IMG/VR virus record: IMGVR_UViG_3300009500_000011
Coordinates: 104,585-168,584 of that record
Origin: a virus
Lineage: Duplodnaviria; Heunggongvirae; Uroviricota; Caudoviricetes
Strand: one strand, 5' to 3'
DNA length: 64,000 nt
The notes under the pieces are model-generated. The model ran no database searches. It was not told where the DNA came from and worked only from the letters and a program-made list of their open reading frames with translations. The stretch's first letter is position 1. Each line of letters opens with the position of its first letter. The position numbers and the translations under genes were made by a program. Shown here in pieces: positions 11,147 to 58,776 of this stretch.

Positions 11147-11659
11147 ATGGATTTTTTAGTTGGCGATATATTAGTTTTAAAACAAGATGCTCTTGACCTT
11201 GAAGATAAAACTGGCAAAACAATTTTATATCCCGCAGGTTCCGAAGCTGAAATTATACAAATAAAAAATGAAAATGAATATCATCTGCAATTTCCAGATG
11301 CCAAAATATGGCCTCATGACTTGGCAACTTTATTGATTTTCTTTAATCGTAAAAAAGATGGTAAAAATGTTTATACTCGCCAGGTTTCAGAGTATGGTAC
11401 GCCACCAAAAGAGCTTGCTTTTTATATACCTAGAGAAGTTGATTGGCGTAAAAACTATAGGTATACTGTCAGAATTGAAGCAGAAGATTGTGGCTTTAAA
11501 AAATTGATTTGTCCTAGTTGTTTCAATGACCTGGGAGAAAATGGCGAACCAGATAATGAAGGTTTGCAAAAATGTCAAAAATGTGGTACAATGGTTCTCC
11601 CGATAGACCCATTAACATTCAAGTATCCACATGATGACGGAAATGAACACACAACTTAA
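11147..11659 (+). CDS. hypothetical protein with C-terminal zinc ribbon
   Basis: CPSC...CQKCG pair of CxxC motifs. Confidence 0.45.
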   Translation: MDFLVGDILVLKQDALDLEDKTGKTILYPAGSEAEIIQIKNENEYHLQFPDAKIWPHDLATLLIFFNRKKDGKNVYTRQVSEYGTPPKELAFYIPREVDWRKNYRYTVRIEAEDCGFKKLICPSCFNDLGENGEPDNEGLQKCQKCGTMVLPIDPLTFKYPHDDGNEHTT

Positions 11660-12935
11660 GAGTAATTCTCAAAAATTCTTAGAAGCAGCAAATTGGGCTC
11701 TTGTAAAAGAACGCTTTGGCGAAGATACAGGAGTTAATATTCGTCGCGCTTCTATAGATAATGTGCAAAATATTACGCTTTTCAATGGTTCAAAAGGTTT
11801 ACTTTTTGATGGATATTCGTTTCCTGAACAAGAACATCTTAAAGGCTTGATTGTTCACGAAGTATTAGGAAGCGCACATTCGGTTATAGCGGCATGTTTT
11901 CCTAAATTCTATAACTATGGCGAACCTGCTGAAAAACAAAAGCATCTTGAATACTTAAATGACGATTCTATGAGTGTGTTATTTGCTAAGAAAGAGGATG
12001 GAGTAAATATTCGTCCTTATTTCAATGCTGCAACAAATAGAGTTGAATTTGCTACGCGCGGAACCTTGCTTGTTGTTTCTGATATTGAAGAAACGTCTAA
12101 TCTTGATTATGGCGCAATGGCTCGTTCAATTGCAGAAGAAAAATATCCAATTCTTTTGGATGAGGAATTTGTAAAGAAATACTCTTGTATTTTTGAAATG
12201 ATTCATCCTGATTCCAAAATTCTTACGGATTATGGACAAAGAAAAGACCTTATTCTTCTGTCAGTATTTGATTTAGAAAATAACTGCTATGAATTTTCGC
12301 GTGAATGGGTAGCATCTTGGGCAAATATAATTGGGTTAAATTATGTTGAATATTGGTTTGACCAATATGCGCCTGTTTCTGAATTTTCTTCTTTAGTTGA
12401 AAAACTACTTAAAAAATGGAACGAAACGGATGTAGAAGGTTCTGTTGTTATATTTGTAAACTCTGAAGCAGAACCTGTATATCGTCTTAAAGTTAAAAAT
12501 GCTTATTATTTACAAATGCTTCGACTTGCAAAATTTTGCACTTTGAAGAATTTAGTCTCAATCATGGAAGAAAATAACTTTTCAAATTGGGAACAACTTC
12601 GTGCATATTTGTACGAAAGCCCTTCAATGAATGAAGAATTAGAAATGGCATATAAGGCTCATTTTGATGTATATGAAAATTGGTTAGCAAATCTTGAAAT
12701 CGAAAAACAAAATGTTTTAAAAGAATATCAAGAATTACCTTCTTTCGAATTACAAAAAGATTTTGCTTTATACATCTTAAAAGATGGCGCTTATCCATAC
12801 AATCCGCTATTCTTTGCTATTCGCAAATGGTTAGCAGAAGCCAAAAATCCTAATTTAGAACAATTCTTTGAAGAAAATGTTAAAGCAACAGTAATGTTGA
12901 AGAAAATCTATCCACTATCGGAAGTAGAGGAATAA
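11631..12935 (+). CDS. ATP-dependent RNA ligase (Rnl1-like)
   Basis: Covalent nucleotidyltransferase motifs: motif I KKEDGVN (T4 Rnl1 has KEDG), FEMIHP, motif IV-like VEGSVVIF, motif V-like RLKVKNAYY. Confidence 0.7.
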   Translation: MMTEMNTQLKSNSQKFLEAANWALVKERFGEDTGVNIRRASIDNVQNITLFNGSKGLLFDGYSFPEQEHLKGLIVHEVLGSAHSVIAACFPKFYNYGEPAEKQKHLEYLNDDSMSVLFAKKEDGVNIRPYFNAATNRVEFATRGTLLVVSDIEETSNLDYGAMARSIAEEKYPILLDEEFVKKYSCIFEMIHPDSKILTDYGQRKDLILLSVFDLENNCYEFSREWVASWANIIGLNYVEYWFDQYAPVSEFSSLVEKLLKKWNETDVEGSVVIFVNSEAEPVYRLKVKNAYYLQMLRLAKFCTLKNLVSIMEENNFSNWEQLRAYLYESPSMNEELEMAYKAHFDVYENWLANLEIEKQNVLKEYQELPSFELQKDFALYILKDGAYPYNPLFFAIRKWLAEAKNPNLEQFFEENVKATVMLKKIYPLSEVEE

Positions 12936-12936
12936 C

Positions 12937-13443
12937 ATGGGTTTATTTGATTATGTAATTTGTGATTATCCTTTACCTGATTCATATAAAGGGAGTATTA
13001 AGTTTACAACTAAAGACTTAAATTCTTTTATGAATACTTTTACTATTACTGAATCAGGTCAACTTTTAGAACACAAATTTCATTTTGAAGAAGTTCCTGA
13101 AGAAGAACGTCCTAAATTTAATACACCCGAATGGAATTCTGATAACGAAACAATTAAAACTTGGACACGCTTAATGGGTTCAAAGATTCAAGTATTTGAT
13201 GGCTTGGAACCCTACCTTTACACAGGTGCTGTTTGTTTTTACGGTTCAAATTTAGATAGTTGTAATTCGGATGGATATTATACTACAGAAAATGATGAAC
13301 CTTATGAATACAAAGAATACATTGCTTTGTTTAAAAATGGTATGTTAATTAACATTATTGAAAATAATGAAAAAGACAATGAATTTTTTACTCCAGAATG
13401 TTTTTTAACACAAAAACAGTATAAAGAAAAATATAATGAATGA
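12937..13443 (+). CDS. hypothetical protein
   Basis: Intact ORF between the RNA ligase and the Thg1-like gene. Confidence 0.45.
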   Translation: MGLFDYVICDYPLPDSYKGSIKFTTKDLNSFMNTFTITESGQLLEHKFHFEEVPEEERPKFNTPEWNSDNETIKTWTRLMGSKIQVFDGLEPYLYTGAVCFYGSNLDSCNSDGYYTTENDEPYEYKEYIALFKNGMLINIIENNEKDNEFFTPECFLTQKQYKEKYNE

Positions 13444-14197
13444 CTCGCTTGGCGACCGAATGAAAACATATTATGAAGATGTGACGCGGCATTACTTGCC
13501 TCGGCGAACTCATACAATTATTCGGTTAGATGGAAAATCTTTTCATACGTATACAAAAAAATTAGCAAGACCATTTGATGCTGGTTTGATTGAAGATATG
13601 CAAAAAACCACAATTCGACTTTGTGAGAATATTCAGGGCGTTGTTCTTGGTTATACGCAATCTGATGAAATATCTCTTGTTTTATGTGATTATAAAGAAA
13701 AAGAAACTGAATCCTTTTTTAAAGGTAATATTCAAAAAATTTGTTCAGTATCTGCAAGTATGGCTACTGCATTCTTCAATGCTTTTAGACAAGCCCGTAA
13801 TTTTGAAGGTGGTCCAGCATTTTTTGATGCTAGAGTATTTACTATTCCAGAAAAGGTAGAAGTTCTTAATTATCTTATTTGGAGACAAAAAGATGCAACA
13901 AGAAATTCTATTCAAATGGCCGCACAATCTGTTTATTCTCATAAAGAACTTAATAAAAAGAAGTGGTCTGATTTAAATGAAATGCTTTTTCAGAAAGGTA
14001 TTAATTTTAATGATTATTCTTCTTCTGAAAAACGTGGTTCTTTAATTGTGAAAGAATATTTTGAAGGGGAAGCCTATGATAAGCGTAAGCAAGAAAATGT
14101 TATAGTTACTCGGTCGCGTTGGATTGTAGAACCTGAAACACCTCTTTTTACTGCTGAAGAAAATAGAGATTTATTTGAAAGGTATTTATATAAATAA
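13436..14197 (+). CDS. tRNA-His guanylyltransferase (Thg1)-like protein, 3'-5' nucleotidyltransferase
   Basis: LGDRMK.YE....., IIRLDGKSFHTYTK, GYTQSDEISLVL. These are the hallmark Thg1/TLP motifs. Confidence 0.85.
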   Translation: MNDSLGDRMKTYYEDVTRHYLPRRTHTIIRLDGKSFHTYTKKLARPFDAGLIEDMQKTTIRLCENIQGVVLGYTQSDEISLVLCDYKEKETESFFKGNIQKICSVSASMATAFFNAFRQARNFEGGPAFFDARVFTIPEKVEVLNYLIWRQKDATRNSIQMAAQSVYSHKELNKKKWSDLNEMLFQKGINFNDYSSSEKRGSLIVKEYFEGEAYDKRKQENVIVTRSRWIVEPETPLFTAEENRDLFERYLYK

Positions 14198-14282
14198 ATT
14201 TAGTTATTTTCTGACTTCTTTTCATGTCGAATCGCGTACTCTATTGACATGAAGAAATTTCTCGGAAATTTTCCCTACAAAA

Positions 14283-14321
14283 AAGCCAACCATTTGTAAT
14301 AATAATGGGTGGCTTTTTGTT
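14283..14321 (+). terminator. intrinsic terminator after the Thg1-like gene
   Basis: AGCCAACCAT...ATGGGTGGCT followed by TTTTT. Confidence 0.6.
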
Positions 14322-14349
14322 TGAAAAACACTATTTATGATGGAGAGCA

Positions 14350-15051
14350 ATGTATATGCCAAAAAAACAATCTTCTCAAACACCTAGAAGAATTCCAACC
14401 ATAAGAACGGTACAATTTGAAGCCCAAACAATAAATCAAGAGAAGTTTGTAAAAAATATAGAAAGAAATGTTGTTTCATTCGGAATAGGTATACCAGGTT
14501 CAGGAAAAACGTATTTAGCATTAGCAACTGCTCTTAAAGCATTAGTTGAACAAAAATGTGAACGAGTTGTAATAACTAGACCAATGGTTGAAGCAGGTCC
14601 TTCTATCGGATTCCAACCTGGAAATGAAGAAGAAAAACTTGGAGTATATTTAAAACATATTTATGATATGATATATAAATTACTACCAAAAGTTTTGGCA
14701 GATGATTTGCTTGATTCAGGAAAAATATCAATTGGTGCTATTACATTTATGAGAGGAATGAATTTTGAAAACTCATATGTAATAATAGATGAAGCCGAAA
14801 ACTTAGACAAAAAATCATTTTATTTGTTATTAACAAGAATTTGTGAAGGGTCTAAAATGATTTTTTGTGGTGATACTGGCCAGGTTGATTTAAAAAATCC
14901 TAGTGAAAGCGGATTAAATGATGCAGTTTTAAAATTTCAAGGTAAAGAAAATTTTAGTGTAACTGAATTTACTATTGAAGATTGTCGCAGAAGTAAAGTT
15001 GTTATGGAAGTTATTAAAGCATATTTCCCTAACTCAACCAAGACAAAGTAA
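14350..15051 (+). CDS. phoH: PhoH-like ATPase
   Basis: Walker A GIPGSGKTYLALA, Walker B IIDEAENL, GDTGQVDL motif. Confidence 0.9.
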   Translation: MYMPKKQSSQTPRRIPTIRTVQFEAQTINQEKFVKNIERNVVSFGIGIPGSGKTYLALATALKALVEQKCERVVITRPMVEAGPSIGFQPGNEEEKLGVYLKHIYDMIYKLLPKVLADDLLDSGKISIGAITFMRGMNFENSYVIIDEAENLDKKSFYLLLTRICEGSKMIFCGDTGQVDLKNPSESGLNDAVLKFQGKENFSVTEFTIEDCRRSKVVMEVIKAYFPNSTKTK

Positions 15052-15102
15052 AACAAATTGCGTACTTAATTATGCAAACTTATTTTATGAGGCTTTTTTA
15101 GT

Positions 15103-16095
15103 ATGTTGTTTTTTGCAAATAAAATTAAAAAAATTGCATCAACCCCTTTATGGGCAAATGTTGTAAATTTAGATGACGGCTCTGGTCCTGTACAAGGGTT
15201 TTGGGTTGATTCAAGTTTGGGTATGCCATTCTTTTTAAGAAAATCCGACCATGTGATTTGGTTGCCTAAAACTTTACGTGGCAAAAAAATTGATTCTTTA
15301 ACACCAGAAGAATTACAAAATGTTCCGAAAGAAGATTCTGGAAAAGTTCATTATAAAAATTGGAAAGCAAATTCAGATAAAAGAAATATTGCCGCAAAAT
15401 TATTTAATGGATATGCTTTTACGGACGCTGGAATTCAATTAGTTCAAGGATTAAAAAAATTAGCAGATAAATATGAATTAGATGATGTTACAAATGTTCG
15501 TCTTGAACGTCGTCTTTCCATCAATCCTGGTCTTTTTGATAGACTTTTACAATGTAATAATCTTCAAGATGTTCAACGTCTTGGGCGTCTTATAGTAAGA
15601 AAATTTGTTTTCATTATTAAAAATATGAGTTTAACTGAACCTAAAATTGCCAAAAGATTAGATGCTGATTTTATGTATCAATACAAAAAAATTGAACCTC
15701 TTTTTGATATTGACCCGCTATCTATAGATGTAGAACTTCCTGAAACATTTGAAGAAAATGAAATTCCAGACCCACGTTTAGACCATGTTAAAGTTTTAAT
15801 GCAAAATTGTGAAGCAGAAATAGAACCAATGATGGATAATGACCTTCAGCTTTCTGCACCTCTCACTTGGCTAAAAGATGCTTCTAAAGTGCTTAAAAAA
15901 GCTCAAGATATTCAATCTGAAAATATAATGGAAGAAGTAAAATTTTATCTTATTTCAATGATTTTTTCTCTTCAAAAATTAGCAAAGGTTGCTCCTGCTG
16001 ACCATCCTCTTGTAGGTAAAGTCGAGCAAATTTTGAATGCTAAAAGTCTAAGTGCCATTTTAATGGCACTTGCAAAGACTGACCCGCAAATGTAA
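15103..16095 (+). CDS. hypothetical protein
   Basis: 330-aa intact ORF; no motif recognised. Confidence 0.45.
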   Translation: MLFFANKIKKIASTPLWANVVNLDDGSGPVQGFWVDSSLGMPFFLRKSDHVIWLPKTLRGKKIDSLTPEELQNVPKEDSGKVHYKNWKANSDKRNIAAKLFNGYAFTDAGIQLVQGLKKLADKYELDDVTNVRLERRLSINPGLFDRLLQCNNLQDVQRLGRLIVRKFVFIIKNMSLTEPKIAKRLDADFMYQYKKIEPLFDIDPLSIDVELPETFEENEIPDPRLDHVKVLMQNCEAEIEPMMDNDLQLSAPLTWLKDASKVLKKAQDIQSENIMEEVKFYLISMIFSLQKLAKVAPADHPLVGKVEQILNAKSLSAILMALAKTDPQM

Positions 16096-25197: not shown

Positions 25198-25274
25198 GGG
25201 ATAGTAGGAGAATTGGCATATCTACCACGTTTAGACCGTGGGTTCTGTGGGTTCAAGTCCCACCTATCCTACCA
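25198..25274 (+). tRNA. type I (5-nt variable loop) tRNA with anticodon TAG
   Basis: Acceptor GGGATAG/CTATCCT, perfect arm CCACG-TTTAGAC-CGTGG, variable GTTCT, T arm GTGGG-TTCAAGT-CCCAC, A73, CCA. Confidence 0.65.
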
Positions 25275-26746: not shown

Positions 26747-26833
26747 GGCCGAATGGCGGAATTGGTAGACGCGGCAGACTCAAAATCTGTTGTCCGAAAG
26801 GGCGTGTGGGTTCAAGTCCCACTTTGGCCACCA
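26747..26833 (+). tRNA. tRNA-Leu(CAA), type II
   Basis: Acceptor GGCCGAA/TTTGGCC, arm GCAGA-CTCAAAA-TCTGT, variable arm GTCC-GAAA-GGGC, T arm GTGGG-TTCAAGT-CCCAC, A73, CCA. Confidence 0.9.
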
Positions 26834-26862: not shown

Positions 26863-27309
26863 GTGATTAACTTTATTAAAAAGATTTTTAAACTAGGTAG
26901 TACCCAACCGAAGAATATTTCGTCAAATTCAAAACCATCGACAGCGAGTAATTCAATTAATTACAATGTTCATCCCATTGTGATTGAGCGACCTCTTCCG
27001 ACTCCTAAGCCGGTGTATTACGATGATACATCTTCGCAATTAACGAATATGTTGTTAATGGAAGAGATTATTGATTCAAGTTATCAACCTACCACAACGG
27101 TAATTGTAGAACCACCAGCACCTGTTGATAATTACAATAACTATTCGGCACCAGAACCTTCGCCGTCTTCGTCGCCAAGTCCATCATATGATAGCGGTTC
27201 ATCATATTCAGATAGTAGTTATTCGTCGTCTTCTTCATGGTCTTCTTCGTCATATGATAGCGGTAGTAGTAGTTCGTCTTCATCATATGATAGTGGTGGT
27301 GGTTGGTAA
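26863..27309 (+). CDS. Ser/Pro-rich low-complexity protein with SYDSG repeats
   Basis: GTG start. The C-terminal third is about 60 percent Ser, with three SYDSG units. Confidence 0.4.
   Translation: MINFIKKIFKLGSTQPKNISSNSKPSTASNSINYNVHPIVIERPLPTPKPVYYDDTSSQLTNMLLMEEIIDSSYQPTTTVIVEPPAPVDNYNNYSAPEPSPSSSPSPSYDSGSSYSDSSYSSSSSWSSSSYDSGSSSSSSSYDSGGGW
27184..27297 (+). repeat. three copies of a 15-nt unit TCATATGATAG(C/T)GGT within Ser-rich coding sequence
   Basis: Copies at 27184-98, 27250-64 and 27283-97. Each encodes SYDSG. Confidence 0.7.
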
Positions 27310-27320
27310 ATAATAATAAA

Positions 27321-27403
27321 GGGCAAGTGGTGGAACTGGTATACACGTATGTCTAAGAAGCATATGCGAAAGCATGTGGGTTCGAGTCCCACCTTGCCCA
27401 CCA
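27321..27403 (+). tRNA. tRNA-Leu(AAG), type II, A34
   Basis: Acceptor GGGCAAG/CTTGCCC, arm TATGT-CTAAGAA-GCATA, variable arm TGC-GAAA-GCA, T arm GTGGG-TTCGAGT-CCCAC, A73, CCA. Confidence 0.75.
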
Positions 27404-27889: not shown

Positions 27890-27979
27890 GGGGATATGGT
27901 GAAATTGGTCAGACACAACAGGCTTAAACCCTGTCGGGCGTTATATCCCATGTCGGTTCGAATCCGACTATCCCTACCA
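27890..27979 (+). tRNA. tRNA-Leu(TAA), type II
   Basis: Acceptor GGGGATA/TATCCCT, arm ACAGG-CTTAAAC-CCTGT, long variable arm, T arm GTCGG-TTCGAAT-CCGAC, A73, CCA. Confidence 0.85.
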
Positions 27980-28615: not shown

Positions 28616-28862
28616 AACCATAAAATACTTTGATTGTCAAGATATGCCTGAAAAAGTAAAAGAGGCATTTTTTAATACTTTTGAAATTTTTGAAAAATAT
28701 TATCCAAATAATATCATTATTGAATGGTTTGAAGAATATTCAAAAAGTGGATTTAAAAAACAATTTCCAAATAATGCTGATAATTTAAACAAAGTAAATC
28801 TTTGGTTGAAAAAAAATGGAGCATTACCTGGAGAATTAGTATTAATTAAACATTGGTGGTAA
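28602..28862 (+). CDS. hypothetical protein
   Basis: Intact ORF in the tiling. Confidence 0.4.
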   Translation: MMKYKTIKYFDCQDMPEKVKEAFFNTFEIFEKYYPNNIIIEWFEEYSKSGFKKQFPNNADNLNKVNLWLKKNGALPGELVLIKHWW

Positions 28863-28864
28863 AT

Positions 28865-29404
28865 ATGTCTAAAGAAATTTTAACCGTGTATTTAGCCGGT
28901 CGTATAGATGGTATTAGTGCAGATAGAGCAACAAATTGGCGCGATGAAGCATTAAAGTTACTTGCAAAAAATAAATTTGCAGGTCTTTGTCCTATTACTC
29001 ATGGTGTTGATTTAGAACTTAACTCTGGTGTTCCCGCCGATTTGACTAAACCAGAAATACATAATAAAATTTTTGAAATAGATTTAGATTTAATTTTTAG
29101 AAGCGATGCAGTTATTGCAAATATGGAATATATATCGTTTGGAACCGCACAAGAAATATTTTATGCAGATAAAATATTAAATATTCCTGTAATTGCATTT
29201 AATAATAAAAGTTGCACTTCTGCTTTTCTTTATGCAACAACTTACAAAATAGTTGACACATTAGAAGATGCTATTGAAGTGTTAAAAACATTAAATAAAA
29301 AATCAGAAATGTTAACAATTGGTGGTTTAAGAGAAGTTCTTTGGAGTACAAGAGAGACATACGATATTCCTTTAGAAAAACTAAAAAAACGTAATTCTTT
29401 TTAA
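28865..29404 (+). CDS. nucleoside 2-deoxyribosyltransferase-like protein
   Basis: N-terminal VYLAGRIDG....W motif typical of the NDT-like fold. By-eye call. Confidence 0.45.
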   Translation: MSKEILTVYLAGRIDGISADRATNWRDEALKLLAKNKFAGLCPITHGVDLELNSGVPADLTKPEIHNKIFEIDLDLIFRSDAVIANMEYISFGTAQEIFYADKILNIPVIAFNNKSCTSAFLYATTYKIVDTLEDAIEVLKTLNKKSEMLTIGGLREVLWSTRETYDIPLEKLKKRNSF

Positions 29405-29682: not shown

Positions 29683-30408
29683 ATGATTAATACATATGTT
29701 GTAGGGGACGTACACGGTTGCTACGATTCTCTAATCGAATTACTAGAATTGGTTAATTTTAATGTTGACCGAGATATGTTAATAAGTGTTGGCGACCTTG
29801 TAGATAAGGGTCCAAAAACCAAGGAAGTTTTAGACTTCTTTATGAAGTATGGTTATCCTGTGGTTAGAGGCAATCATGAAGATAAGATTGCTCGTCTTGC
29901 CAAGGGAAACAAGATTAAGATTAACTCTGAAATTCAAGATACTGTTGAACAACTTGGAGAAGGTTGGCAGGAAACGTATGGCCTATTTCTTCAATCAATG
30001 CCATTATATCTTCCGTTTGAAGATGCTTTGGGTAAGGGATATATTGTCCACGGTGGCGTTGCACCAGACCTTCCTATCGAAAGGCAAAGTTCTAATTTCT
30101 TAATGCGTCTTAGAACGTGGCCTTTTGAAGAATATGTACGTGGGGTAGAGGCAACTCAACCTCCTTGGCAGACTGAATATAGAGGTCACTTAGGAACAAT
30201 ACTTCACGGGCATATTCCAAGTGCAGGCGTAATGTATGCAGGTTCTGAAAAGCATGGAAATCCCAATGTATATTCATTGGATGGTGGATGTGTTTACGGG
30301 AATGACCGTCCTTGGGGCGGTAGTCTTCGGGCTATTAAACTTGATACTAGAGAGATTTTCTCTGTTCCCGGTAATCAAGAACAAACAGAACATTATAACA
30401 GTTTGTGA
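29683..30408 (+). CDS. PPP-family Ser/Thr phosphatase / ApaH-like diadenosine tetraphosphatase
   Basis: GDVHGC, GDLVDKGP, RGNHE motifs (lambda-phosphatase/ApaH family). Confidence 0.85.
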   Translation: MINTYVVGDVHGCYDSLIELLELVNFNVDRDMLISVGDLVDKGPKTKEVLDFFMKYGYPVVRGNHEDKIARLAKGNKIKINSEIQDTVEQLGEGWQETYGLFLQSMPLYLPFEDALGKGYIVHGGVAPDLPIERQSSNFLMRLRTWPFEEYVRGVEATQPPWQTEYRGHLGTILHGHIPSAGVMYAGSEKHGNPNVYSLDGGCVYGNDRPWGGSLRAIKLDTREIFSVPGNQEQTEHYNSL

Positions 30409-30462: not shown

Positions 30463-30888
30463 ATGTTTTCTGAAGAACTTGCCACTTTACCTTTTGGTTT
30501 GAAGATGGCTCAAAAAGTATTTCAAAATACTCCTGATAAAAAGAAGCGGGTAACTGCTTGTTTTGTGAAAGGAGGTTTATTTCTTGCTGACACCAATCAA
30601 TTTAAGACCGACCCTACAGGCCATAAATTGAATAGTCGGGGTTGTCGCCTTCATGCTGAAATGAAAGTTCTAAAAAGACTTCGTTTCCAAGAAACAAATG
30701 GTGGCAAGTTGTTTGTTTATAGAGAAGATATGTCCGGTGCAATTAAAAATGCCAGGCCGTGTCGTGCTTGTAGAAAAATGATAGTAGAATGTGGAATTAA
30801 CACAGTTTACTATACAATAGAAGAAGGATACATAAAAGAGAAGATAAACAACTCAGCAGATTATATAGGCTCAGATAATGAATATTGA
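30463..30888 (+). CDS. CDA-fold zinc deaminase (dCMP/cytidine/tRNA-adenosine deaminase-like)
   Basis: HAEM...(about 35 aa)...PCRACRKMI zinc-binding signature. Substrate cannot be told from the sequence alone. Confidence 0.8.
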   Translation: MFSEELATLPFGLKMAQKVFQNTPDKKKRVTACFVKGGLFLADTNQFKTDPTGHKLNSRGCRLHAEMKVLKRLRFQETNGGKLFVYREDMSGAIKNARPCRACRKMIVECGINTVYYTIEEGYIKEKINNSADYIGSDNEY

Positions 30889-31186
30889 TGATAAGTGCGA
30901 AACATGCGATGGTAAAGGTACATGGGAAGTACCCTGGGATGAAGTTGATGATGCAACCAAGGCTATGCTTGGTGGCATTGATGACTTGATAAGTAAATTT
31001 CCTGGTTCTAAATTGGGTCCATTAGTTTATAATTGTCCTGATTGTCAACAAACTGGTTCGCAAGCCGTTCGAGAACAATGGTCAATAAATCGTTTAGACC
31101 CTAAAAAACATGAGTATGTTTTTCAATGTACTGATGGTGACCCTTGTTGGGAATGTAAAGCAGAGAAAAAAGAGCATTTAAAATGA
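30878..31186 (+). CDS. small zinc-binding protein (DnaJ-type CxxCxG-like)
   Basis: CETCDGKG and CPDCQQTG motifs. Confidence 0.4.
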   Translation: MNIDDKCETCDGKGTWEVPWDEVDDATKAMLGGIDDLISKFPGSKLGPLVYNCPDCQQTGSQAVREQWSINRLDPKKHEYVFQCTDGDPCWECKAEKKEHLK

Positions 31187-32001
31187 TTGATTATACAACA
31201 AAACCGGATTTAGGAAAATTATCTGAATCAGAATTTTTTGATTTAGATAATCCGCCTTTTGATATTCAAAAACATTGTTTATATTCAGTCATATCTGGTT
31301 CAAAAGCATATGGATTAGATACGCCTACAAGCGATACTGATATTCGTGGAGTTGTATATTTACCAGAAAGAATGTTGCTTGGTTTAGGTAGATTTGAACA
31401 AATTGAAAATCAAAGCAAAGATATTTGTTATTACAGTCTACAAAAACTTTTTAATTTGGCATTAAAAAATAATGTTCATGCAATGGAAATGCTTTGGATG
31501 CCAAAAAGAACGGTTAACTTTATACATCCTTTATTTGAGCAAGTTCTAGATAATAAAAATTTATTTATGTCTAAACGCATTGCATATACTTGTGGTGGAT
31601 ATGCTTTCCAACAAGTTAAGGTTGCCTTTACAAAGATGAAAAATAAGACTGGTAGAGTTAGTTTATTAGAACAATTTGGCTATGATACTAAATTTATGAG
31701 TCATAGTATTCGTATTTATAGAATGGCCCGTGAAGCATTAGAAACAGGTTTTCTAAATGTCTATCGACCTGATAGAGAGTTTTTACTTGATGTTAAGGTT
31801 GGTAAATATAAACTTGAAGATATTGTTGTTATGGGTAAAAATTCAGAAGGTAAAGATACTTTTGTTGGTGGATTATTAGCAGAAGAATTGCGACTTTTTA
31901 ATGAAGCACTTGCAAAAACAAAATTACCAACCGACCCTCCTTTCCAAAAAATTGAAAATCTTTTAATTAAAGTTCAAAAAGAAGCTTTATCTTTTAATTA
32001 A
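31183..32001 (+). CDS. Pol-beta superfamily nucleotidyltransferase (RlaP/PF10127-like)
   Basis: ISGSKAYGLDTPTSDTDIRGV matches the GS..YG......SD.D..G NTase signature. This family is often annotated as RNA-repair associated. Confidence 0.7.
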   Translation: MIDYTTKPDLGKLSESEFFDLDNPPFDIQKHCLYSVISGSKAYGLDTPTSDTDIRGVVYLPERMLLGLGRFEQIENQSKDICYYSLQKLFNLALKNNVHAMEMLWMPKRTVNFIHPLFEQVLDNKNLFMSKRIAYTCGGYAFQQVKVAFTKMKNKTGRVSLLEQFGYDTKFMSHSIRIYRMAREALETGFLNVYRPDREFLLDVKVGKYKLEDIVVMGKNSEGKDTFVGGLLAEELRLFNEALAKTKLPTDPPFQKIENLLIKVQKEALSFN

Positions 32002-34465: not shown

Positions 34466-35905
34466 TTGAACAAAATTTACGACCTTATCATTATTGGAAC
34501 TGGCCCAGCAGGTTTTTTCTGTGCAATAGATTTAGTTAGAAAAGGATATACAAATATCCTTATGATTGATAAAGGTTCTCTTCGTACAGGTAAATCAGAC
34601 GAAAATGTGACAGAAGGATGGGCAGGGGCTGGGGCACATTCCGATGGTAAGGTCAATATGACTCATAAAGTCGGAGGAATCTTAGCCGACGTTATTGGGT
34701 TAAAGCGTTTCCATGAGTTATTAGAAAAACAAGACCAAATGTGGCTTGATTTTTCTCCAACAAATGAACAAAAAAAATTACGTCAACAAAAATCTCCTGA
34801 TGCTGATTTAGATGTAAGGTTATTCGTTCCAACTGATGAATCTAAAATTTTAAGAGCTAAAGCCTTAGCAAATCACATGGAACTTGAAACATATCCAATA
34901 AGACATTTGGGCACAGATAATATGTTAGATTCAACTAACAATATGCTCGAATATCTTAAATCTAATGGTGTTGAAGTAGTATTAGAGGCTGAAGTAAAGC
35001 AAATCTGTAAATATAAAAATGAAGAAGAATTTGTAGTAAGAGTTCAAAAAAAAGATAGTTGGTGTGACCCAGAATTTGGAGACTATGAACTTGAACATTA
35101 TGACGGGAAGAATGTTCTTATTGCTACAGGACGCTCTGGGGGGCATTTCTTCCGTGAAACCATGCAATGCTTAGATATTCCTATGTTAAATAATGGCGTT
35201 GATATTGGTGTTCGTGTCGAAGTTCCAAATGAGATTACAGATGGACTCTTAAAAGCCGGTATTTATGAACCTAAAATGCTTTATAGAACACCAACATTTG
35301 ACGATTCCGTTCGCACATTTTGCTGGTGTAATAGTGGATTTGTTGCAATAGAAGAATATCGTGATACCGGAATTAAGACAGTTAATGGTCATTCCTATGC
35401 CGACAAGAAATCTAACAATACAAATTTTGCTTTACTTGTTACAAAAACATTTACTTCGCCATTCGATAACCCACAAGCATATGCAGAATCAGTTTCAAGA
35501 ATGGCCAATCTTTTATCGGGTAATTCTGTTTTAGTTCAAAGATATGGAGATTTTAAAGCAGGTAGACGTACAACAGAAAAAAGATTAAATGAAGGAGCCC
35601 TTGTTCCAACTCTTGATGCAGTACCAGGAGATTTATCTCTTGCTATTCCTTATCGTCAAATGTTGGCAATCGGAGAAATGTTAGAAGCTATGGACAAAGT
35701 TTTACCAGGTATTGCAAGTAAATACACCTTGTTATACGGTATTGAAGCTAAATTCTATAGCAATCGAGTTAATATTGATTCAAATAGTATGACAGAAATT
35801 AAAGGTCTTTATGTTGCTGGAGACGGTTCTGGATGGACAAGAGGGTTAAATCAAGCGGCAATTCAAGGACTTGTTGTTAGTGAAGGAATTTTAAATGCAA
35901 AATAA
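34466..35905 (+). CDS. FAD-dependent oxidoreductase (COG2509-like)
   Basis: TTG start. N-terminal dinucleotide fold YDLIIIGTGPAGFFCA. C-terminal GLYVAGDGSG. Confidence 0.75.
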   Translation: MNKIYDLIIIGTGPAGFFCAIDLVRKGYTNILMIDKGSLRTGKSDENVTEGWAGAGAHSDGKVNMTHKVGGILADVIGLKRFHELLEKQDQMWLDFSPTNEQKKLRQQKSPDADLDVRLFVPTDESKILRAKALANHMELETYPIRHLGTDNMLDSTNNMLEYLKSNGVEVVLEAEVKQICKYKNEEEFVVRVQKKDSWCDPEFGDYELEHYDGKNVLIATGRSGGHFFRETMQCLDIPMLNNGVDIGVRVEVPNEITDGLLKAGIYEPKMLYRTPTFDDSVRTFCWCNSGFVAIEEYRDTGIKTVNGHSYADKKSNNTNFALLVTKTFTSPFDNPQAYAESVSRMANLLSGNSVLVQRYGDFKAGRRTTEKRLNEGALVPTLDAVPGDLSLAIPYRQMLAIGEMLEAMDKVLPGIASKYTLLYGIEAKFYSNRVNIDSNSMTEIKGLYVAGDGSGWTRGLNQAAIQGLVVSEGILNAK

Positions 35906-45362: not shown

Positions 45363-45456
45363 TTTAAATTGCGTTAATTACAGATACTTCTTGTATATTG
45401 GTTCGAGTCCATTAAGTGTAGTCGGTACACAACTGTAGTTGTTCCATTCGTTTAAA
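45363..45456 (+). ncRNA. Y-RNA-like element C with tRNA-like T arm
   Basis: ATTTAAA/TTTAAAT terminal helix, TTGCG...TTACAG pairing with CTGTAG, ATACTTCTT box, TGG-TTCGAGT-CCA T-arm mimic, GTGTA-gtcgg-TACAC hairpin. Confidence 0.5.
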
Positions 45457-45464
45457 TTTTATTT

Positions 45465-45498
45465 AATCCTTGGGAATATATTTCTCAAGGATTTTTTT
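45465..45498 (+). terminator. intrinsic terminator closing the Y-RNA-like array
   Basis: AATCCTTGGGA...TCTCAAGGATT followed by TTTTT. Confidence 0.6.
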
Positions 45499-45519
45499 GT
45501 TGTCATAAAGGAAAAAAGA

Positions 45520-47205
45520 ATGAAATACAATACTAAAACAGTAAATGCTGGTCCAGGAACAAAAATGATAAATCTTGCAGGCGGAGAAGCTTTTAAAGTT
45601 GATAATCGTACTGCATTATATTTAACTTCTGCAACTTCTTTAGGTGGCGGTCAAGGAAATAAATATTATGTTTCTGCAAATCAAGAATACAAAAATATTC
45701 TTGAACTAATTGAAAAGGTTTCCGCTCAAGACCCAGAATTTATTTTCCAATTGGCTGCATATTGTCGTCAAGATTTATACCTTCGTAGTATTCCAACGGT
45801 ATTATTTATCGAAGGTATTCGTGCAATGCATAAGCAAAAAAAGGCCAATGCACCATATCCAGTAGATGCATCTAAGTATGCAAATGCTATTTTTGGTCGT
45901 GCTGATGAAATTGTTGAAGCAGTTGCATATTGGCTTGGAGTTGAAGGCCATCACAAATTGCCTTCCCCTCTTCGTAAATCTTTGACCATTGCTTTAAATT
46001 CATTTGATGAATACCGCTTGCTTAAATATAATCAAGAAGATAAGCAAGTTACATTTAAAGATATTGTTCGTCTTGTGCATCCAGAACCAAAAACTGATGT
46101 GCAAAGTGCAATTTTCAAATACTTCATCAAGGATGAAATCAGTCCAGAATTAATGCCAAAGGCAACTGCCCGCAAGGCTTTGCTTTCACGTACTCAATTT
46201 GATGAAGAAGCACAACGCTTGATGAGAGATTCATCTGCTACTTGGGAAACTGTAATTGCTAAATTCGGTTCGACTAAAGAAATTTGGGAAGCAGTTATTC
46301 CAAATATGGGATACATGGCTTTATTACGTAATCTTAATAATTTTCTTAAAAAAGAAGTAGATTTAGATTTAGTAATTCCTCGCCTTGTGAATCCGCAAGA
46401 AATTCGTAAAAGCAAGCAATTGCCTTTCCGTTTTTACACAGCAATGAAACAACTTGGTGTAGAAGATAACAATAAGAATTCTACGATGACATATTATGGA
46501 TATTCCGATTCAGTAAAAACAGCATTTGAAAAATGGCGTAATGTAAATTCTAGCGATGGAATTTCTCGTTTACGTAATGCTCTTGGTGTTGCTATGAATA
46601 TTGCAGTAGAAAATGTTCCTCACCTTTCAGGTCGTACCGTTGTTGCGGCAGACCTTTCTGGTTCTATGAGTCAACCTCTTAATAACAAATCAAATGTAAC
46701 TTATCGTGAAATCGCTTGTATTATGGCTGGTATTGCTGGTTCAATAGCACCAGATAATGTAATTTGTGGATTTGGTTGTTCATTTGCTGTTGCTAAAAAA
46801 GGCAAAGATATTCTTGAAACTGCAAATAATATTGATAAATTAAATGTTGGAATGTCAACGGATGCATGGCGTATTCTTGATTACTTGCTTACAAACAAAA
46901 TTTTTGTAGATAGAGTCATGTATTTTACAGATACACAATGTTATAATTCATATGGGGGCGCAAATTTAAACGAACTTTGGAAAAAATACAAAGTTCTTTG
47001 CCAATCAACTGGTAAAAAAGTTCCTGTTCTTTATGAAGTAAATCTTGCAGGTGGTAATACATCTAGTTTTAATTCTGAACAAAGAGTTGCTACCATTGGT
47101 GGATGGTCTGAAAGAATTTTTGATTTAATTACTACTTATGAAACTGACCCTCGTCAAGCAATAAGTAAAATTAAAGAAAAATATTCAGATTTAGTATCTG
47201 TTTAA
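45520..47205 (+). CDS. rsr: Ro60-related protein (TROVE domain + vWA), Rsr-like
   Basis: Start trimmed to MKYNTKT behind AAAGGAAAAAAG. TROVE-like helical repeat region (FIFQLAAYCRQDLYLRSIP). C-terminal MIDAS AADLSGSMS. Confidence 0.85.
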   Translation: MKYNTKTVNAGPGTKMINLAGGEAFKVDNRTALYLTSATSLGGGQGNKYYVSANQEYKNILELIEKVSAQDPEFIFQLAAYCRQDLYLRSIPTVLFIEGIRAMHKQKKANAPYPVDASKYANAIFGRADEIVEAVAYWLGVEGHHKLPSPLRKSLTIALNSFDEYRLLKYNQEDKQVTFKDIVRLVHPEPKTDVQSAIFKYFIKDEISPELMPKATARKALLSRTQFDEEAQRLMRDSSATWETVIAKFGSTKEIWEAVIPNMGYMALLRNLNNFLKKEVDLDLVIPRLVNPQEIRKSKQLPFRFYTAMKQLGVEDNNKNSTMTYYGYSDSVKTAFEKWRNVNSSDGISRLRNALGVAMNIAVENVPHLSGRTVVAADLSGSMSQPLNNKSNVTYREIACIMAGIAGSIAPDNVICGFGCSFAVAKKGKDILETANNIDKLNVGMSTDAWRILDYLLTNKIFVDRVMYFTDTQCYNSYGGANLNELWKKYKVLCQSTGKKVPVLYEVNLAGGNTSSFNSEQRVATIGGWSERIFDLITTYETDPRQAISKIKEKYSDLVSV

Positions 47206-55185: not shown

Positions 55186-56619
55186 TTGACTAGTTTACTT
55201 ATGACATATGGAATTCCGGTAGGTATCGGATTATTAGCATTATTTTTCATCGTTGGACTTCTTCGTTCAATGTATAAAGTCGCAGAACCGAATGAAGCTT
55301 TAATTATTTCAGGTTTTGGGGCAGGCAAAAAAGGTTCTGACTTAGATTTCAAATCAGTTGCTGGCGGTGGCACATTTGTAATTCCTGGCCTTCAAATTGT
55401 GCGTAAACTTTCTTTAGAAGCCCGTACTGCTAAATTGGTTACAAGTTGTGTTTCTAAGCAGGGTATTGGTGTATCTATTGAAGGTGTTTGTATGTACAAA
55501 ATTGGTGATAGCGCACAATCTATTGCCAACGCTGCACGACGTTTTCTAGGTCAACCAGATGACTTAATTGATAGCAATATTCAAACAGTTCTTGACGGTC
55601 ATCTTCGTTCAATTATCAGTAATTTAACGATTGAAGAAATTCTTCAAAATCGTGAAAAACTTACTGGTGAGACAAGAAGTGCTGCTGATGATGAACTTGC
55701 ACAGATGGGTCTAGTTATTAACTCGCTTCAAATCATTAGTATCAAAGATTCTAGTAATTATGTTGCAAGCATGGCTGCTCCTCATGTTGCAGAAGTTCAA
55801 AAGAATGCTCGTATTGCACAGGCTGCTGCTGAACAAGCAGCAACAATTGCTGAACAAGAGGCTGCTGCTCAAAAGGCCGCTGCTACTAGAGATTCAGAAG
55901 TCAAACAGGCTGCATATTTAGCAGAGATTGAATCTGCGAAAGCAACAGCAGCACAACAAGGCCCTCTAGCGGCTGCTAAAGCGCAACAAGCCGTTATGGT
56001 TGAACAAACTAAAATGACGGAACTTGAAGCTAATCGTAAAGAACAAGAACTTCAAGTTAGTGTTCGTCGTCCTGCTGATGCAGAAGCCTATGCTGTTACA
56101 GTTAAGGCAAATGCTCAAAAGGTTGCTACGATTGCTGCTGCTGAAGCAAATGCACAACAAACTAAACTTGAAGCTGAATCTCGCGCTGCCGCAGCTAGGG
56201 TTCTTGGTGAAGGTGAAGCAGAGGCTACAAAGGCCCGTGGTGCTGGTGAAGCTGCTGCTATTGAAGCCAAAGGTCTTGCTGAAGGTAAAGCAATTCAAGC
56301 GCGTGTACTTGCCGAAGCCGAAGGTATTGCCGCTAGTGGTAAAGCATTCGCTGAAAATAAAGAATCTGTTATTCAAAAGATTCTTGCAGAACATATGCCT
56401 GAAATTGTTAAAGAAGCTGCACAACCATTTGCTGCAATTAAAAACTTCATGGTTCTTGATGGTGCCCAAGGTGTAAATCGTACACTTACCGGAATCATCG
56501 GTGTGGGTGCAACCTTGCTTCCACAAATCATGCAGACTTTTAAAGATGGTGCAGAGGTTGTTAAGAATCAAGTATCACTCACGAATTCTGGAACAGACTC
56601 TGAAAAACCCAAGAAGTAA
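55186..56619 (+). CDS. flotillin-like SPFH (band 7) protein
   Basis: N-terminal TM helix, YKVAEPNEALIISG start of the SPFH domain, long Ala/Glu/Gln-rich flotillin coiled coil. TTG start (alternative ATG at 55201). Confidence 0.85.
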   Translation: MTSLLMTYGIPVGIGLLALFFIVGLLRSMYKVAEPNEALIISGFGAGKKGSDLDFKSVAGGGTFVIPGLQIVRKLSLEARTAKLVTSCVSKQGIGVSIEGVCMYKIGDSAQSIANAARRFLGQPDDLIDSNIQTVLDGHLRSIISNLTIEEILQNREKLTGETRSAADDELAQMGLVINSLQIISIKDSSNYVASMAAPHVAEVQKNARIAQAAAEQAATIAEQEAAAQKAAATRDSEVKQAAYLAEIESAKATAAQQGPLAAAKAQQAVMVEQTKMTELEANRKEQELQVSVRRPADAEAYAVTVKANAQKVATIAAAEANAQQTKLEAESRAAAARVLGEGEAEATKARGAGEAAAIEAKGLAEGKAIQARVLAEAEGIAASGKAFAENKESVIQKILAEHMPEIVKEAAQPFAAIKNFMVLDGAQGVNRTLTGIIGVGATLLPQIMQTFKDGAEVVKNQVSLTNSGTDSEKPKK

Positions 56620-58130: not shown

Positions 58131-58213
58131 CGGCGGGTTCCCGTAGCGGCGAACGGTCTGCTTTTACATGGCAGCATACCACATCGTGGGTTCGAGTCCC
58201 ACCCTGCCGACCA
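58131..58213 (+). tRNA. tRNA-Val(TAC) with 11-nt variable loop
   Basis: Acceptor CGGCGGG/CCTGCCG, arm CTGCT-TTTACAT-GGCAG, variable CATACCACATC, T arm GTGGG-TTCGAGT-CCCAC, CCA. Promoter at 58092-58120. Confidence 0.7.
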
Positions 58214-58685: not shown

Positions 58686-58776
58686 CTCGGTGTGGTGTAA
58701 CTGGATAGCACAAAACGCTACGAACGTTTAGGGAGCCGCAAGGCCATTGGGGGTTCGAATCCCTCCATCGAGGCCA
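58686..58776 (+). tRNA. tRNA-Arg(ACG) on a type II (long variable arm) scaffold
   Basis: Acceptor CTCGGTG/CATCGAG, perfect arm AAACG-CTACGAA-CGTTT, 19-nt variable region with GCC-GCAA-GGC hairpin, T arm GGGGG-TTCGAAT-CCCTC, CCA. 91 nt. Confidence 0.65.

Follow-up and report, generated by a model that had tools for sequence, protein, structure and literature searches.

A tRNA-Leu(AAG) gene in the tRNA island of a large AT-rich phage, and a dCMP-deaminase-like protein that is probably unconnected with it

Bacterial tRNA-Leu(AAG) is nearly confined to Bacilli, in several families of the Lactobacillales, where it replaces tRNA-Leu(GAG) and where A34, the first anticodon base, is converted to inosine (I34) by the host TadA (PMC13249217). 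Streptococcal TadA edits this tRNA both in vivo and in vitro, and bacterial families that possess tRNA-Leu(IAG) show raised use of CUC (PMC13249217). The S. pyogenes enzyme edits tRNA-Leu(AAG), E. coli TadA did not edit the streptococcal tRNA in vitro, and the anticodon-loop consensus of streptococcal TadA is YUAMGRA, as against YUACGAA (PMC11472039). Here we analyse a 64,000-nucleotide stretch of a caudoviricete phage genome (IMG/VR record IMGVR_UViG_3300009500_000011, positions 104,585 to 168,584; hereafter the window), which encodes both a tRNA-Leu(AAG) and a 141-residue zinc deaminase. A preliminary description of this DNA had raised the possibility that the deaminase is a partner of the tRNA, with widened tRNA specificity. 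On balance, our data lean towards a different reading, in which the tRNA is functional, tuned to CUU and in no need of a phage deaminase, and the deaminase is an unrelated nucleotide enzyme.

Deamination is not the only fate described for A34. Unmodified A34 reads mainly U-ending codons, and an orthogonal tRNA carrying AAG in an Arg2-type loop contained ~15% I34 in E. coli in vivo, decoded CUU over CUC at 76:24 and was no longer edited after an A37G change (PMC11066159). A natural Streptomyces tRNA-Asp(AUC) functions with 97% unmodified A34 (PMC9262613). A34 outside tRNA-Arg is neither unprecedented nor necessarily a decoding handicap. Two premises of the preliminary description need adjusting in this light: that bacteria restrict A34 to tRNA-Arg is outdated, Leu(AAG) being established in the Lactobacillales (PMC13249217, PMC11472039), and that unmodified A34 decodes poorly is an overstatement, U-ending codons being read well (PMC11066159; for tRNA-Asp(AUC), PMC9262613).

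The tRNA genes at issue, all called by ARAGORN and by Rfam, are:

27321..27403, + strand: tRNA-Leu(AAG), class II, with encoded CCA (Rfam RF00005)
58686..58776, + strand: tRNA-Arg(ACG), loop CUACGAA (Rfam 49.4 bits)
25198..25274, + strand: tRNA-Leu(UAG), the other reader of the CUN box
26747..26833, + strand: tRNA-Leu(CAA)
27890..27979, + strand: tRNA-Leu(UAA)

The tRNA-Leu(AAG) gene scores 56.7 bits against RF00005 (E 1.4e-9; gathering score 29) and has a canonical cloverleaf, with a 7-bp acceptor stem (GGGCAAG/CTTGCCC) followed by discriminator A73 and the CCA, and an extra arm, TGC-GAAA-GCA, that makes it class II, at the short end of that class. Its 7-nt anticodon loop, C32 U33 A34 A35 G36 A37 A38, occupies 27353..27359, with A34 at 27355. 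A long variable arm and A73 are the identity elements by which leucyl-tRNA synthetase recognises E. coli tRNA-Leu, and both are present in this sequence. In a relative, the 274,834-bp metagenomic contig L001, which holds the same four Leu tRNAs as the window, the gene (6854..6936) is identical at 83 of 83 positions and its upstream flank has diverged. Thus far the preliminary description is borne out: the phage carries both an Arg(ACG) and a class II Leu(AAG) tRNA, and the latter is confirmed as a real, conserved tRNA gene. We give hardly any credence to the idea that it is a decaying or non-functional copy, such as a point mutant of a GAG or UAG tRNA. A single base change at position 34 would suffice to create the AAG anticodon, and the island does contain odd tRNAs (the anticodon loop of one is 8 nt long, and the variable region of a Leu(UAG) is short), but the cloverleaf is perfect and the Rfam score high, the 83/83 identity is found in a relative whose proteins are 88-95% identical to those of the window and whose flank has diverged, 27 distinct viral tRNA-Leu(AAG) sequences are known, usually replacing GAG (see below), and the tRNA matches the dominant CUU codon.

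All 32 tRNA genes found by ARAGORN in the window lie on the + strand, between 16.9 and 62.9 kb. Leu(AAG) and Arg(ACG) are the only clear A34 tRNAs among these 32, which include no tRNA-Leu(GAG). The tRNA-Arg(ACG) is of the canonical TadA substrate type, with an unusual length of 91 nt and a long extra arm. The tRNA-Leu(UAG), just 77 nt long including CCA, has a variable region shorter than is typical of Leu tRNAs, and its amino-acid identity is uncertain. Over 76 open reading frames (ORFs), taken like those of the Shine-Dalgarno statistics below from simple longest-ORF gene calls, the Leu codons are TTA 738, CTT 385, TTG 197, CTA 79, CTC 17 and CTG 14. CUU makes up 27% of Leu codons and 78% of the CUN box, and CTC is the most depleted NNC codon of the 16 boxes (4.2% of CTY, versus 9-21% elsewhere and 18% for CGC), a depletion that fits, as weak support, a reader serving CUU and not CUC. 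In the reading we prefer, tRNA-Leu(AAG) would take the place of tRNA-Leu(GAG) and supply CUU decoding; A34 may be mostly unmodified and read CUU by Watson-Crick pairing, or may be partly converted to inosine by the host TadA, and a phage-encoded tRNA deaminase would not be needed.

Immediately upstream of tRNA-Leu(AAG) lies an ORF (26863-27309) whose product ends in a Ser/Gly/Tyr/Asp-rich repeat. In L001, an HNH endonuclease gene (6058-6609) on the opposite strand occupies about the same place, indicating that the spacers between tRNAs are variable.

Like the Lactobacillales systems (Streptococcus, Lactobacillaceae and Oenococcus oeni), the window combines A34 in a class II Leu tRNA with a loop that fits YUAMGRA; CUAAGAA fits it exactly, and position 35 is all that distinguishes it from the Arg loop, CUACGAA. 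Among the 32 tRNAs of the window Leu(AAG) stands without Leu(GAG), which it may replace, and coexists with Leu(UAG) and Arg(ACG), in an AT-rich genome in which UUA is the top Leu codon. The window differs in that its tRNA is phage-borne, in a phage whose host, by Shine-Dalgarno use, is probably not a Firmicute; in that CUC is nearly avoided, whereas families with I34 use it more; and in that position 37 is A, whereas streptococcal Leu(AAG) differs from Arg(ACG) at positions 35 and 37 (PMC11472039). We considered whether A37 might be a deliberate mimic of the tRNA-Arg loop and rejected this, A37 being common also in viral Leu(UAG) and Leu(CAG). With the tRNAs that work with unmodified A34 (PMC9262613, PMC11066159), the phage tRNA would share the ability to read an abundant U-ending codon by Watson-Crick pairing instead of G:U wobble, and its loop context is that of the engineered AAG tRNA, which in E. 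coli is mostly unmodified (PMC11066159). Those molecules, however, were sequenced as tRNA, whereas the one in the window is known from its gene, is phage-borne and belongs to a four-codon box.

To see how often such genes occur in viruses, we turned to a pattern scan of IMG/VR, in which 120 loci were listed, making all counts lower bounds. Among these 120 listed matches are at least 30 true viral tRNA-Leu(AAG) genes, with 27 distinct sequences. They lie mostly in AT-rich tRNA clusters devoid of Leu(GAG): the G+C content of the 30 loci ranges from 24 to 58% and is below 42% in 24, and just one of the 30 also has Leu(GAG). Beyond Leu, the A34 tRNAs of these loci are Arg(ACG) and one Val(AAC). 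The tRNA-Leu genes of cultured phages that most resemble that of the window have UAG, CAA or CAG anticodons, none of them AAG, and a megablast search with 22 concatenated viral Leu(AAG) genes against deposited phages gave no match. Thus tRNA-Leu(AAG), thought to be nearly confined to the Lactobacillales, recurs in many AT-rich, tRNA-rich viral contigs, and the present phage, one of these cases, probably has a non-Firmicute host. Its recurrence, which is no major surprise, raises the question of whether phage A34 tRNAs are unmodified Watson-Crick readers of U-ending codons or users of a side activity of the host TadA.

Other A34 tRNAs were counted as by-catch of two IMG/VR scans (L024-L143 and L150-L268), both with listed matches only. 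The ~1,500 viral tRNAs listed include Thr(AGT) twice and Val(AAC), Cys(ACA), Phe(AAA), Ala(AGC) and Ser(AGA) once each, making other A34 tRNAs about as rare in the by-catch as Leu(AAG) is. The proposal that phages have A34 in Leu and Arg tRNAs only holds in the Leu(AAG)-positive loci, and the by-catch is too small for a firm conclusion. Two contigs (L082, 37 kb, and L085, 322 kb) have Leu(AAG) anticodon arms nearly identical to that of the window, and may be distant relatives of its phage.

The deaminase is encoded 3 kb further along the same strand:

30463..30888, + strand: 141-aa zinc deaminase, with HAE at 30652..30660 (residues 64-66) and PCRAC at 30757..30771 (residues 99-103)

It is the sole match to [HC][AV]E...[PS]CxxC in all six frames of the window, and the only Pfam family it matches is the generic PF00383 (31.2 bits versus a cut-off of 25), so that the preliminary description identified it correctly as a zinc deaminase. 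The HAE/PCxxC site is not diagnostic of TadA or of dCMP deaminase, because it is common to the whole superfamily. PHROGs place the protein in dCMP deaminase families, and a single-sequence search gave a weak match to the dCMP deaminase of cyanophage S-TIM5. There is also a weak partial match to an anti-phage dCTP deaminase model, and an NCBIfam search matched no TadA model. A word-indexed search with the single deaminase recovered only the L001 relative (90% identical), and an exhaustive search was needed to reveal the family. At E <= 0.001 it gave 848 relatives, of which the ones listed have for the most part 75-155 aa and share the motifs N..KTHP, HAE, YVYRE..G...ARPCxxC and GIK.I.YTT..G...E.

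Compared with the sequences in the PDB, a profile built from 52 family members matches dCMP deaminases best (S-TIM5, 1e-14; S. mutans, 2.8e-14; T4, 6.3e-13; human DCTD, 3.6e-11). The next matches, a 'nucleoside deaminase' and A. aeolicus TadA, are five orders of magnitude weaker, at 4.5e-6, E. coli TadA stands at 7.6e-4, and overall dCMP deaminases outscore TadA by ~8 orders of magnitude. The helix after PCxxC, CRKMIVECGINTVYY, has the dCMP-deaminase pattern, as in S-TIM5 (CSKMIAQAGVKKVYY) and S. mutans (CTKALLQAGVKKITY); the TadA pattern at this helix is different. CDA chains match the profile at E 0.017 or weaker. The typical CDA motifs are CAE and PCGxCRQ, whereas the 141-aa protein has HAE and PCRACRK, and a sequence tie to the CDA family was not found. 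The S-TIM5 dCMP deaminase (PDB 4P9C/4P9E) and the canonical phage dCMP deaminases of 140-150 aa are similar in size to the protein and its best match by sequence and by Foldseek. Alignment with them runs end to end, through HAE, PCxxC, the CxK.I...GI..VYY helix and strand and the C-terminal E-K-V/I strand. Compared with these canonical mini dCMP deaminases, the family lacks GYNG and helix 4 and has gained, before PCxxC, an insertion of ~10 residues (YRE..G...AR) with an invariant Arg.

An AlphaFold model of the protein (pLDDT 86 overall, 92-95 over residues 101-130) predicts that strand 4 (114-119) runs directly into strand 5 (122-127), forming a beta4-beta5 hairpin with no helix 4 that, in the model, resembles those of CDA and blasticidin-S deaminases. 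Foldseek against the PDB ranked the S-TIM5 dCMP deaminase (4P9E) first, though with TM-scores of only 0.52-0.57, followed by blasticidin-S deaminases, and bacterial TadA was absent from the top 50. Matches to the fold as a whole are best for the cytidine and blasticidin-S deaminases with a C-terminal hairpin. The long C-terminal helix of TadA and ADAT2, which in TadA is reportedly essential for binding the anticodon stem-loop (PMC8216470), is missing: the model ends in just a short helix (131-136) in a lower-confidence tail, most family members stop right after strand 5, and in the profile alignment TadA chains run ~60 residues past the aligned region, where the deaminase family ends. Together, the sequence and the model suggest as the most likely substrate of the protein a cytosine nucleotide of the dCMP or dCTP type, its product possibly feeding the synthesis of dUMP/dTTP in a phage whose AT-rich genome has a ribonucleotide reductase of its own (the large subunit lies 26 kb from the deaminase). 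It would then be a passenger of the same early or accessory region, unconnected with the tRNA.

The genomic contexts of other family members point the same way. In a 47-kb contig devoid of tRNAs (L010), the gene lies downstream of those for primase, DnaB and PolA and extends into the start of that for a ribonucleotide reductase; in L007 it lies between PolB and an IMPDH-like gene, with a dUTPase nearby and a single tRNA-Asn; in L008 it is near SbcCD; and L004-L006 hold family members in loci without tRNAs. No A34 tRNA is present in L004-L007 or L010. In its lack of co-occurrence with A34 tRNAs the family is unlike TadA and ADAT2, whose profile matches are at E 4.5e-6 or weaker. Some homologues are nevertheless located within tRNA islands, in XacN1, RAS14 and Xoo-sp13, and Streptomyces phage NootNoot has one at its island edge. 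The 28 tRNAs in each terminal repeat of XacN1 (genome described in PMC5852040) include none with A34; the island stretches of RAS14 and Xoo-sp13 examined hold no Leu(AAG) or Arg(ACG), with one odd 96-nt 'Tyr(ata)' call in Xoo-sp13; and NootNoot has Leu(GAG), its sole A34 tRNA being Arg(ACG). In the 283 kb available around the at least 30 viral Leu(AAG) genes, a sample that is small and has short flanks, a hidden Markov model of the family found no member, which is a lack of neighbourhood linkage and not proof of absence from those genomes. IMG/VR locus searches with single proteins (the window deaminase, P0008 and P0003) found nothing, and the closest relatives, P0002 and P0005, come from contigs of only 0.5-1.6 kb. 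Within the window itself, Leu(UAA) and not Leu(AAG) is the closest tRNA to the deaminase. With a tRNA every 1-2 kb in this region, over a span of 16.9-62.9 kb, any gene there lies within a few kb of one, and the proximity of Leu(AAG) to the deaminase says little. The pairing of tRNA and deaminase is probably coincidental.

Several observations weigh against the reading of a CUU-tuned tRNA beside an unrelated nucleotide enzyme. In three distant groups (this phage, XacN1-like phages and NootNoot-like phages), the deaminase lies in or at the edge of a tRNA/RNA-repair island, which leaves room for an RNA-related role. In phage T4, however, the dCMP deaminase gene cd presumably adjoins pseT and lies near rnlA; if so, a neighbourhood of RNA-repair genes is not evidence for an RNA substrate. 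Thymidylate synthase was not found in the 64-kb window. Where viral loci carry Leu(AAG), their remaining codon boxes are served by G34 and not A34, which hints that Leu(AAG) may be tolerated through some deaminase acting on it. Control AT-rich viral contigs are also CTC-poor, and the difference between them and the Leu(AAG) loci is not significant (p = 0.19); we therefore rejected CUC depletion as evidence for unmodified A34 and keep it as weak support. The host TadA, moreover, is expected to be strict, because a non-Firmicutes host is suggested and E. coli TadA did not edit Leu(AAG) in vitro (PMC11472039). Finally, the 141-aa protein is not an ordinary dCMP deaminase, because the allosteric motif and helix 4 are missing. 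The motif G(Y/W)N(A/G), which marks the dCTP/dTTP allosteric site (PMC12088426) and reads GYNG in canonical small dCMP deaminases, is replaced by D-T-N-Q, and in the closest relatives by xxN with no aromatic residue and no final G/A; a 12-column alignment gap marks the loss of helix 4, a segment of 12 residues that separates strand 4 from strand 5 and in the hexamer contacts the neighbouring protomer (PMC12088426). Judged by its sequences, the family (115-145 aa) is a derived offshoot of the mini dCMP deaminases that is presumably not under allosteric control. As such it marks a branch of phage dCMP deaminases, devoid of the allosteric apparatus, that has not been described, although it too is no major surprise. 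The preliminary description had also allowed for an ordinary dCMP deaminase, one that would cluster with that family and keep its allosteric-site residues: the clustering is found (profile, PHROGs and Foldseek), whereas the allosteric motif is not conserved and the word 'ordinary' has to be dropped.

How A34 is handled may depend on the host, and a TadA of widened specificity (UAMG), as in Streptococcus or Oenococcus, might do the job completely, leaving the phage deaminase irrelevant. We consider this unlikely, though not negligible. CUAAGAA fits the S. pyogenes TadA consensus (PMC11472039), streptococcal TadA does edit tRNA-Leu(AAG) in vivo and in vitro (PMC13249217), the presence of AAG without GAG in the window follows the either/or pattern of the Lactobacillales, viral loci with Leu(AAG) have A34 elsewhere only in Arg(ACG), bar one Val(AAC), and the G+C content of the window, 32.6%, would be compatible with a host of that order. 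Shine-Dalgarno use argues otherwise: a 4-mer core precedes 30% of the ORFs of the window and a 5-mer core 10%, far below an Enterococcus phage scored in the same way (76%/62%) and nearer to a Bacteroides crAss-like phage (19%/5%), with XacN1 at 40%/13%. The nearest phage ribonucleotide reductases come from Bacteroides phages (28-29% identity), and nothing similar is found among 50,697 deposited phage records: a near-DNA search with 26.5-31.5 kb gave as its sole match an 80-nt tRNA stretch of XacN1, and the 1191-aa protein of the window had no match among deposited phages, so that no cultured relative points to the host. Nor does codon usage suggest I34, CUC being 4.2% of CUY as against 18% for CGC in the I34-read Arg box, whereas Leu(IAG) families raise CUC; and viral Leu(AAG) contigs of 24-58% G+C are unlikely all to belong to Lactobacillales phages. 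The host is probably not of the Lactobacillales and not a Firmicute, a judgement based on single benchmark phages, and the weak Shine-Dalgarno signal and the ribonucleotide reductase matches hint at a Bacteroidota-like or other host with low Shine-Dalgarno use.

Two further explanations concern the deaminase. That it acts on some other target (C-to-U editing of tRNA or mRNA, deamination of a modified nucleotide for DNA modification, or interference with a nucleotide-based defence of the host), with Leu(AAG) independent of it, seems to us rather improbable. Its repeated placement in tRNA/RNA-repair islands of three distant phage groups, the CDA/blasticidin-S-like hairpin, the invariant Arg in the new loop and the lost allosteric motif, which suggest changed substrate or regulation, and the weak partial match to the anti-phage dCTP deaminase model all fit such a role; yet no particular alternative substrate is indicated, in small phages the gene sits in replication and nucleotide modules, and every one of the solved structures closest to it in sequence is a dCMP deaminase. 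Still less probable, in our view very unlikely indeed, is the proposal from which we started, that the protein is a phage tRNA adenosine deaminase that converts A34 of Leu(AAG), and perhaps of Arg(ACG), to I34 independently of the specificity of the host TadA. In favour of this proposal, the allosteric hallmarks of dCMP deaminases are missing from the family, which also recurs in tRNA islands, but its profile similarity to TadA is 8 orders of magnitude below that to dCMP deaminases, the helix CRKMIVECGINTVYY follows the dCMP-deaminase pattern, and the C-terminal helix reportedly required by TadA for anticodon stem-loop binding (PMC8216470) is missing. XacN1, moreover, has a homologue and no A34 tRNA, other homologues adjoin ribonucleotide reductase, DNA polymerase or dUTPase genes with few or no tRNAs, and the sequence available around at least 30 viral Leu(AAG) genes contains no homologue. 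In the improbable event that the proposal were true, the phage would possess a route to I34 that does not involve TadA, and could use an anticodon that the host TadA cannot service.

The window belongs to a large (~275 kb) phage genome bearing a tRNA island. L001 has the same gene order around its deaminase. The neighbours of the deaminase, and the RNA-related genes nearest the start of the window, are:

28853..29404, + strand: nucleoside 2-deoxyribosyltransferase-like protein, of nucleotide-metabolism type, 1 kb upstream of the deaminase
29683..30408, + strand: calcineurin-like metallophosphoesterase, upstream neighbour of the deaminase in the same gene string
30878..31186, + strand: 102-aa ORF with CxxCxGxG and further Cys-pair motifs (zinc-finger type)
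31183..32001, + strand: RlaP-family nucleotidyltransferase (Pfam 'RNA repair pathway DNA polymerase beta family')
11631-12935: T4 Rnl1-type RNA ligase
13436-14197: Thg1-like 3'-5' polymerase
14350-15051: PhoH

The 102-aa ORF shares 11 nt with the deaminase gene at the stop codon of the latter, and in L001 a frameshift splits it. A conserved pair of metallophosphoesterase and deaminase was considered and rejected, because by tblastn the two are neighbours only in L001 and L002 and not beside the homologues in the other loci fetched. The window ORFs also include a primase, the ribonucleotide reductase large subunit, two AAA ATPases and several metallophosphoesterases; no member of the adenosine-deaminase family was found in the window. 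RNA-repair and tRNA-care genes, among them an Rv2179c-like exoribonuclease, RlaP, TROVE/Ro60 and Band7/flotillin, ring the tRNA array (11631-16095, 24447-24935, 31183-32001, 45439-47205 and 55186-56619), forming an island of a type usual in large phages (reviewed in PMC7824862). A similar set is found in the island of NootNoot (L146), with Ro, Band7, RNA ligase, polynucleotide kinase, nucleotidyltransferase, metallophosphoesterase, tmRNA and a small deaminase, and the island of XacN1 (L003) has Band 7, tmRNA and a deaminase. An FAD-dependent protein is 479 aa long in the window (34466-35905) and 831 aa in L001 (13979-16474), where it has a LAGLIDADG match; the size difference together with this match suggests the insertion of an intein or homing endonuclease in one of the two phages.

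Several tRNAs of the island that usually belong to class I have long extra arms: Arg(ACG), 91 nt (58686-58776); Lys(CTT), 85 nt (25104-25188); Thr(TGT), 83 nt (23092-23174); and Val(TAC), 83 nt (58131-58213). XacN1 shows the same oddity, with Lys at 89, Thr at 91, Cys at 89 and Asn at 89 nt. Thr(TGT) is 76 nt long in L001 versus 83 nt in the window, indicating that the extra arm varies among close relatives. The tRNA-like gene at 18948-19021 has an 8-nt anticodon loop, TTATCGCG, which ARAGORN reports as 'atcg', Asp or Arg, and its Rfam score of 35.2 bits is the lowest of the island; judging from its sequence, it could be a frameshift-type or degenerate tRNA, or a further A34 candidate (ATC).

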